Assembly: GCF_003334335.1 (NCBI RefSeq)
Contig: NZ_QOWQ01000010.1
Length of the DNA stretch: 64,000 nt
Direction: 5' to 3' (one strand)
DNA from: Escherichia coli
GTDB lineage: Bacteria > Pseudomonadota > Gammaproteobacteria > Enterobacterales > Enterobacteriaceae
Positions within the stretch are counted from its first letter, which is position 1. Each line of letters begins with the position of its first letter. The translations under genes were made by a program, and so were the position numbers. Positions 33,286-33,418 of the stretch are shown one piece after another. Below the pieces are notes generated by a model that did no database searches, had not been told where the DNA came from, and saw only the letters and a list, made by a program, of their open reading frames with translations.

Positions 33286-33418
33286 TAATTTCACTATTTT
33301 CAGAAGGATAATTAATCTTTCTACGTGCACGAACGGTCCCCTCGCCCCTTTGGGGTGAGGGTTAGGGTGAGGGGAACCCGTTGGCACAGGTTTGTACAAC
33401 GTAACAGTACAATATGAA

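Follow-up and report, generated by a model that had tools for sequence, protein, structure and literature searches.

A BoxC repeat in the tldD-aaeR spacer of Escherichia coli and a probable BoxC relic between nanA and nanT

The GC-rich sequence between the convergent tldD and aaeR genes of E. coli is a bona fide BoxC element that has already been described, and there is nothing unusual about this copy. BoxC is a ~ 56-bp non-coding repeat with ~ 20–30 dispersed intergenic copies in E. coli; in its core a single C-rich arm precedes two G-rich ones. The copy was examined in a window of 64,000 nucleotides, the whole stretch of DNA analysed (contig NZ_QOWQ01000010.1), which runs in reverse orientation relative to NC_000913.3 such that the window coordinate equals 3423868 minus the genome coordinate (mapping verified). 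We consider it probable that the tldD-aaeR copy is a passenger in a convergent spacer, possibly an exonuclease barrier and not a terminator, and that a second hairpin of the window, located between nanA and nanT, is a collapsed BoxC pair. For the window itself the tldD-aaeR copy, a catalogued repeat, matters little. RNA 3' ends recorded at four other BoxC loci suggest an RNA-level role, which can be tested, for a repeat first described in 1992.

Table 1 Features of the tldD-aaeR and nanA-nanT spacers and RNA 3' ends at other BoxC loci (window coordinates unless marked as genome coordinates).
Feature	Coordinates	Strand	Remarks
tldD coding sequence	31840-33285	+	Transcript has the element as C arm, then G arms
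BoxC full unit	33324-33379	+	~ 56 nt; conserved 5' flank CGTGCACGAACGGT, three-arm core, GAA tail
Three-arm core CCCTCGCCCCTTTGGGGTGAGGGTTAGGGTGAGGGG	33339-33374	+	36 nt; type A, one mismatch
C arm CCCCTCGCCCC	33338-33348	+	Pyrimidine strand with central G; half of the inverted repeat
G arm 1 GGGGTGAGGG	33352-33361	+	T in K-12, A in the family consensus
G arm 2 GGGTGAGGGG	33365-33374	+	Partner of the C arm in the minimum-free-energy fold
3' flank CCGTTGGCAC	33378-33387	+	Complementary to 5' flank GTGCACGAACGG (33326-33336); lengthens the hairpin here in RNA and DNA folds
aaeR coding sequence	33419-34348	-	Convergent with tldD; transcript would have the complementary, C-rich version
Rho-dependent region, peak	33720 (genome 3390148(-))	+	Antisense to aaeR; ~ 345 nt downstream of BoxC on the tldD strand
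nanA stop codon	51183-51185		
nanA-nanT two-arm hairpin	51187-51227	+	17 bp; CCCCTCGC at 51193-51200, GGGTGAGGGG at 51212-51221
nanT ATG	51294		
BoxC 3' end, ppiC 3' UTR	genome 3959467(-)		TMECO 20
BoxC 3' end, glnH-glnP spacer	genome 847200(-)		Intra-operon
BoxC 3' end, lldD 3' UTR	genome 3781065(+)		TMECO 17, antisense
BoxC 3' end, yjbD 3' UTR	genome 4231270(-)		

Identity and anatomy of the tldD-aaeR copy

According to Holder et al. 2015 (PMC4666352), the motif "earlier described as BoxC" (Bergler et al. 1992, near envM) was found again by Hoyne et al. 2000 under the name of PIT element; their own new name for it is TMECO. BoxC is also treated by Bachellier et al. 1999 and the PIT element by Hoyne & Maher 2002, and the BoxC-type motif is the HPG1/HPG2 G-quadruplex-hairpin motif of Kaplan et al. 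2016 (PMC5100583). Other papers give a BoxC length of 56 bp (range 51–59) and 32–33 copies in K-12. Holder et al. 2015 reported TMECO in 262 proteobacterial genomes and its absence from Salmonella. A literature search under 'TMECO' found no follow-up papers.

The initial annotation had offered the Box C name without confirming it and had suggested a comparison with published consensus sequences. That comparison places the tldD-aaeR copy in both BoxC-type catalogues (PMC4666352, PMC5100583), and the name is borne out by exact matches to TMECO no. 14 and HPGQ 37. TMECO no. 14 (Table 1 of PMC4666352), a 36-nt type A element with one mismatch, is identical to window positions 33339-33374, and its coordinates, NC_000913.3 3,390,529-3,390,494, antisense, are those of the tldD-aaeR copy. 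HPGQ 37 is listed at 3390505(-), between aaeR and tldD, in the HPG1 group. The second loop, TTA, is that of type A, and the core pattern of Holder et al. 2015, CCCTCNCCC-N3-6-GGGNGAGGG-N3-GGGNGAGGG, applied as a regular expression, matches at 33339-33373. The copy should be annotated as BoxC (TMECO 14) and not as new.

Seven other type-A copies of K-12 (tauD-hemB, adk-hemH, fabI upstream, which is the founding envM copy, frlR-yhfS, zntA-tusA, pstB-pstA and yihR-yihS) went into an nhmmer profile, from which the window copy was left out. The profile aligned to 33323-33383 with an E value of 4.5e-17 and 57 bits. The eight aligned K-12 type-A copies are conserved from about cg.gc.cGgACGGTC to GGGGAAaa. 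The tldD-aaeR copy and the seven others have in common the 36-nt core, the 5' flank gCAC.g.ACGGTC and a GAA(A) tail, and this common core, flank and tail define the ~ 56-nt unit. The further genomic copies that the initial annotation had called for exist: a 47-nt BLAST query located 22 places in MG1655, and among 5,426 E. coli genomes the median number of matches was 19. All copies inspected (8 of 8) are intergenic. The family membership and the anatomy of the tldD-aaeR copy are established.

The probability that the hairpin is a chance GC-rich palindrome, with a coincidental likeness to the nanA site, is close to nil. In the window the 10-mer GGGTGAGGGG alone is weakly over-represented, with 6 matches (≤ 1 mismatch) against 2.45 expected, or ~ 2.4-fold, a count reached in 3 of 100 shuffles, and the nanA site is marginal by profile; both would suit coincidence. 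For the tldD-aaeR copy, however, chance is refuted by the profile score, by dozens of near-identical copies with common flanks and by the exact catalogue matches, and the presence of a BoxC pair in the orthologous nanA-nanT spacer of Pseudocitrobacter argues against coincidence at the nanA site.

The sequence first noticed, TCCCCTCGCCCCTTTGGGGTGAGGGTTAGGGTGAGGGGAACC, is present as reported between convergent tldD and aaeR, at 33337-33378 of the window and within a 133-bp spacer. Used as a 133-nt query, the spacer agrees with MG1655 at every base (100% identity), and matches to it were obtained in 5,422 of 5,426 complete E. coli genomes. The C arm and G arm 1 are joined by a TTT loop and the two G arms by the TTA loop. 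The G arms form a 12-nt direct repeat, each complementing the C arm save for one G.T wobble. The K-12 T in G arm 1 is the sole difference from the type-A consensus and results in a G.T wobble with the C arm instead of a G.A mismatch. In its type A loop, its one mismatched position, its conserved flanks and its extragenic place the copy is like other members of the BoxC/PIT/TMECO/HPG1 family, whereas the K-12 allele departs from the BoxC consensus in this single base of arm 1.

Predicted RNA folds have energies of -31 to -34 kcal/mol for the plus strand; for the minus strand the values are about -28 to -34 kcal/mol. The C arm and arm 2 are paired and the stem is extended by the flanks GTGCACGAACGG and CCGTTGGCAC. 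Single-stranded BoxC RNA or DNA is predicted to form a very stable hairpin from the C arm and the distal G arm. An AT-rich 8-bp hairpin, AGAAGGAT-AATTA-ATCTTTCT, occupies 33302-33322 (+) directly 3' of the tldD stop. K-12 has a T in this hairpin where most strains have C, which exchanges G-C for G.U and keeps the pairing; no T run follows it.

No gathering-score match to Rfam was obtained at 33200-33500, where the best E-value matches were noise of ≤ 17 bits. Elsewhere in the window, four tandem matches to Rfam naRNA4 (REP/BIME-type) lie at 31397-31739 (+), in the yhdP-tldD spacer just 5' of tldD. Window positions 1-351 (+) are the end of an rRNA operon and comprise a 5S rRNA cut by the window start, a tRNA (121-193) and a 5S rRNA (236-351).

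Alleles and DNA structure at the tldD-aaeR spacer

Alignment of the tldD-aaeR spacers showed that an O157-like strain has the three arms of the consensus, K-12 its own variant, and B, ATCC 11775 and others an allele in which arm 1 is lost through a 6-nt deletion; a further allele lacks 12 nt. Allele-specific queries assigned the full-length form to 2,031 of 5,426 E. coli genomes (37%) and the 6-nt-deleted two-arm form to 2,969 (55%), and 30 genomes taken at even spacing gave proportions in agreement with these. A hairpin of ~ -30 kcal/mol is kept in all alleles that were folded. In N96 (L015:2425-2505) the whole spacer is an 81-nt sequence with the REP GCCGGATGCGGCATAAACGCCTTATCCGGCC and without BoxC. 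Holder et al. 2015 (PMC4666352) have two categories, "genomic instability" and "TMECO mutated", into which these alleles fit. That nearly all strains have kept the two-arm hairpin could be due to selection, or simply to the range of deletions open to slippage. An empty tldD-aaeR site was sought in outgroups; Salmonella-like and other enterobacterial spacers proved unrelated, and therefore neither insertion boundaries nor a target duplication could be drawn.

The allele frequencies bear on the proposal that BoxC acts as a switch at the DNA level, in which an intrastrand purine-motif triplex, a G-quadruplex or a hairpin would regulate the neighboring genes or replication. Family oligonucleotides form a very stable triplex by CD and NMR (PMC4666352), and published work on the family describes G-quadruplex or hairpin formation depending on the cation (PMC4666352, PMC5100583). 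The tldD-aaeR copy has four G tracts, GGGG-TGA-GGG-TTA-GGG-TGA-GGGG (33352-33374), which match the G3+ N1-7 four-tract G-quadruplex motif, and three-arm repeats that also have G/A/T as their arm centres occur in a distant phylum. The in vitro triplex was obtained with consensus type A/B oligonucleotides (PMC4666352), not with the K-12 arm-1 T variant. Against such a switch, published in vivo DMS footprinting revealed no protection and lent no support to a stable triplex, and the duplex competes; nor was any promoter, terminator or polymerase-blocking effect seen in vivo in published work. The predicted RNA G-quadruplex alone has an energy of -12.6 kcal/mol versus -34 kcal/mol for the hairpin, which is far stabler. 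The 6-nt deletion destroys the four-tract motif, so that ~ 55% of E. coli genomes, which lack arm 1, have lost both the triplex and the G-quadruplex potential. This potential is therefore dispensable at tldD-aaeR, which argues against a locus-specific need for either structure, and we judge a DNA-level switch very unlikely.

Transcript ends and a possible role in RNA

The initial annotation had suggested that the hairpins act as terminators or RNA stabilisers. As to the first, the tldD-aaeR copy is no intrinsic terminator. It resembles one in being a GC-rich stem-loop past a stop codon, but it lacks a U tract, the evidence indicates read-through and the published reporter tests are negative. 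No T/U run follows the stem on either strand, the tails being AACCCGTTGG (+) and ACCGTTCGTG (-), and a promoter/terminator scan called nothing at the element on either strand. Hoyne & Maher 2002, as cited in Holder et al. 2015 (PMC4666352), detected neither promoter nor terminator activity, and no polymerase block was seen in vivo in published work on BoxC-type elements. In Supplementary file 2 of Adams et al. 2021 (PMC7815308) a Rho-dependent region, 3390148(-), with a Rho score of 5.99 and p = 5.5e-18, is located downstream of the element on the tldD strand, and hence tldD transcripts probably read through BoxC. A bidirectional Rho-independent terminator common to tldD and aaeR would account for the strong GC-rich stem between convergent genes, neither of which has another terminator-like site. 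It is nonetheless highly improbable given the missing T/U runs, the read-through implied by the Rho region, the lack of terminator activity of family members in published tests and the lack of a Term-seq 3' end listed at the element.

Evidence on 3' ends comes from one data set, that of Adams et al. 2021 (PMC7815308), which gives ~ 1,000 dominant 3' ends per condition under conditions in which expression of tldD and aaeR is weak and the nan operon is silent. Term-seq had been proposed in the initial annotation as a check for transcript ends at the two hairpins, and the curated list contains none near either of them. A search of the same list with BoxC arm sequences identified 3' ends at four other BoxC loci, ppiC, glnH-glnP, lldD and yjbD (Table 1). 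Each is located 3–4 nt past the first completed hairpin, as checked against the genome, and such ends occur in both orientations of the element. BoxC is not mentioned by Adams et al. 2021. These four ends are best explained as exonuclease-trimmed and hairpin-protected, a reading that we infer from the absence of a U tract together with the negative reporter tests. Four of ~ 30 copies is a suggestive proportion and not a statistically compelling one because all copies are intergenic, where 3' ends concentrate. A further Term-seq 3' end, NC_000913.3 2945855(-), falls at TTTAGGGTGAGGGATAACCTCGCCCTTTTT, which has BoxC-like arms in reversed order followed by a T run and looks like an ordinary intrinsic terminator.

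An exonuclease-barrier role at either hairpin of the window is plausible by analogy with these loci. At tldD-aaeR the element would be a passenger between convergent genes without intrinsic terminators. Transcription of tldD would pass through it and be stopped by Rho ~ 345 nt further on, and the hairpin would then block 3'-to-5' exonucleases to leave a hairpin-ended 3' UTR, as may happen at the four other copies. Triplex or G-quadruplex potential would not be required.

A stronger claim is that the hairpin is a selected, REP-like mRNA stabiliser that sets the half-life of tldD and/or aaeR messages, and that the nanA-nanT hairpin does likewise for the nanA segment, exonucleases trimming back to the hairpin after downstream Rho-dependent termination. 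We consider selection for such a role rather unlikely, although several observations would agree with it. Dominant 3' ends lie 3–4 nt past the hairpin at the four other loci, one of which, glnH-glnP, is analogous to nanA-nanT. Rho regions are present downstream of both hairpins; the one past nanA is weaker and is located at window position 51291 (+), 3372577(-), ~ 60 nt past the hairpin and 3 nt before the nanT ATG. The nanA-nanT hairpin is strand-asymmetric and its length is invariant in 5,409 genomes, and a two-arm hairpin is present in every tldD-aaeR allele examined save for the REP replacement. On the other hand, no 3' end is recorded at either hairpin, N96 has REP in place of BoxC and the outgroup spacers are unrelated, which implies that any stable hairpin may serve at tldD-aaeR, or that none may be needed. 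The stabiliser suggestion of the initial annotation is accordingly plausible by analogy with the 3' ends at the four other BoxC loci, but neither site in the window has a listed end of its own.

Several of these features are shared with REP/BIME elements. Like BoxC, these are short, GC-rich, extragenic, multi-copy palindromes found in 3' UTRs and intra-operon spacers, and in both cases RNA 3' ends occur just past the hairpin. The two also exchange places, in that REP replaces BoxC between tldD and aaeR in one E. coli strain and REP-like sequences occupy the nanA-nanT spacer of several genera. In contrast, their sequences are unrelated, and BoxC has three arms where REP has two. REPs are associated with RAYT transposases; BoxC is not known to have such a partner.

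The nanA-nanT hairpin and related repeats elsewhere

The second motif reported by the initial annotation, CCCCTCGCTCGCCCCTACCGGGTGAGGGGAAA, is present at 51193-51224, within a 17-bp hairpin that begins just past the nanA stop codon (Table 1). The hairpin folds with -26.8 kcal/mol (z = -5.35) on the plus strand, in mRNA sense, versus -17.6 kcal/mol (z = -1.4) on the minus strand, with G.U pairs in the mRNA sense only. Its length does not vary in 5,409 E. coli genomes. It is the second-best match to the BoxC profile in the window (E = 0.044), the aligned part being the distal arm and GAAA. It fails the BoxC core pattern, searched as a regular expression, as the middle arm is absent, and it is found in neither the TMECO nor the HPGQ catalogue. 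Without a middle arm it can at most be a relic of BoxC.

The link to the family is provided by comparative evidence from Pseudocitrobacter and Kluyvera. In Pseudocitrobacter faecalis (L139:1394-1560) the nanA-nanT spacer contains a full inverted BoxC pair, A(-)/B(+), with flanks homologous to those of E. coli, GAGTTtTT before and AAACGCATC...TTCATACCAAAGCG after. The arms of the E. coli hairpin, CCCCTCGC and GGGTGAGGGGA, correspond to the outermost arms of this pair. In Kluyvera (L142) the spacer contains a degenerate BoxC with shared flanks. Among the nanA-nanT spacers fetched from other genera, that of Salmonella contains no BoxC, and those of Citrobacter, Enterobacter and Yokenella contain REP-like palindromes. 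As the repeat is BoxC or REP-like depending on the genus, different repeats occupy one and the same spacer.

Most likely, to judge from the aligned arms and flanks, the nanA-nanT hairpin goes back to an inverted BoxC pair that lost its interior and collapsed. The relic would now be fixed in the spacer as an RNA hairpin that is asymmetric between the strands. Such a collapse accords with the 'palindrome effect' at paired sites described by Holder et al. 2015 (PMC4666352). An independent origin, with BoxC inserted later in Pseudocitrobacter, retains a residual probability, the hairpin failing the family pattern and being marginal by profile. The statement of the initial annotation that the two hairpins of the window are similar copies stands as to their relationship, which the Pseudocitrobacter pair in the same spacer supports, but the profile alone gives the second only marginal significance. 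As a probable collapsed BoxC pair the nanA-nanT hairpin would be an addition to the TMECO and HPGQ catalogues.

Three-arm repeats were also found far from E. coli. A contig pattern search with CCCCTCGC-N3-30-GGGTGAGGGG listed matches mainly from one Gemmataceae MAG, PMV_8.19_sub (JAKEHV01; L020-L135), in which at least 116 three-arm elements are present in 1.09 Mb of fetched DNA. They have the form CCCCTCGCCCC-N3-5-GGGGAGAGGGG-N2-3-GGGGTGAGGGG, the middle arm being outside the search pattern used, and 106 of the 116 counted have G/A/T as their arm centres. Long stop-free stretches surround the Gemmataceae copies, a consequence of high GC content. The repeats of this genome and of a Polaromonas MAG (L019) share with BoxC the architecture, nearly the same arms and the G/A/T centre, whereas they differ in having 11-nt arms, other loops and flanks, and more than 100 copies in one genome. 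Their likeness to BoxC may be due to either homology or convergence. The main text of Holder et al. 2015 (PMC4666352) does not mention Planctomycetes.

A broader idea is that BoxC-type three-arm elements are non-autonomous mobile elements whose C/G1/G2 arms, with an invariant G/A/T centre, would be recognised by a shared trans-acting enzyme across phyla (Enterobacterales, Betaproteobacteria, Planctomycetota), their RNA hairpins having been co-opted as U-tract-less 3'-end protectors, at tldD/aaeR and nanA-nanT among other places. We regard this idea as quite unlikely. The present analysis identified neither a transposase nor terminal repeats nor a target duplication for BoxC. Among single copies, a hand count from published coordinates gave an uninformative split of 8 to 5 for the G-rich strand relative to the lagging-strand template.

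A match labeled 'Campylobacter phage A18a' (MG065686.1, UNVERIFIED; also MG065691.1) is E. coli DNA with the pstB-pstA BoxC and REP and was rejected; contamination or chimeric assembly probably accounts for both records. Among records labeled 'plasmid', 414 have BoxC-like matches, and these include records of Klebsiella (113), Rhizobium (55), Sinorhizobium (53), Azospirillum (44) and Aeromonas (31). At the top of these matches, several 'E. coli plasmids' are 4.8–4.9 Mb in length and are mislabelled chromosomes.
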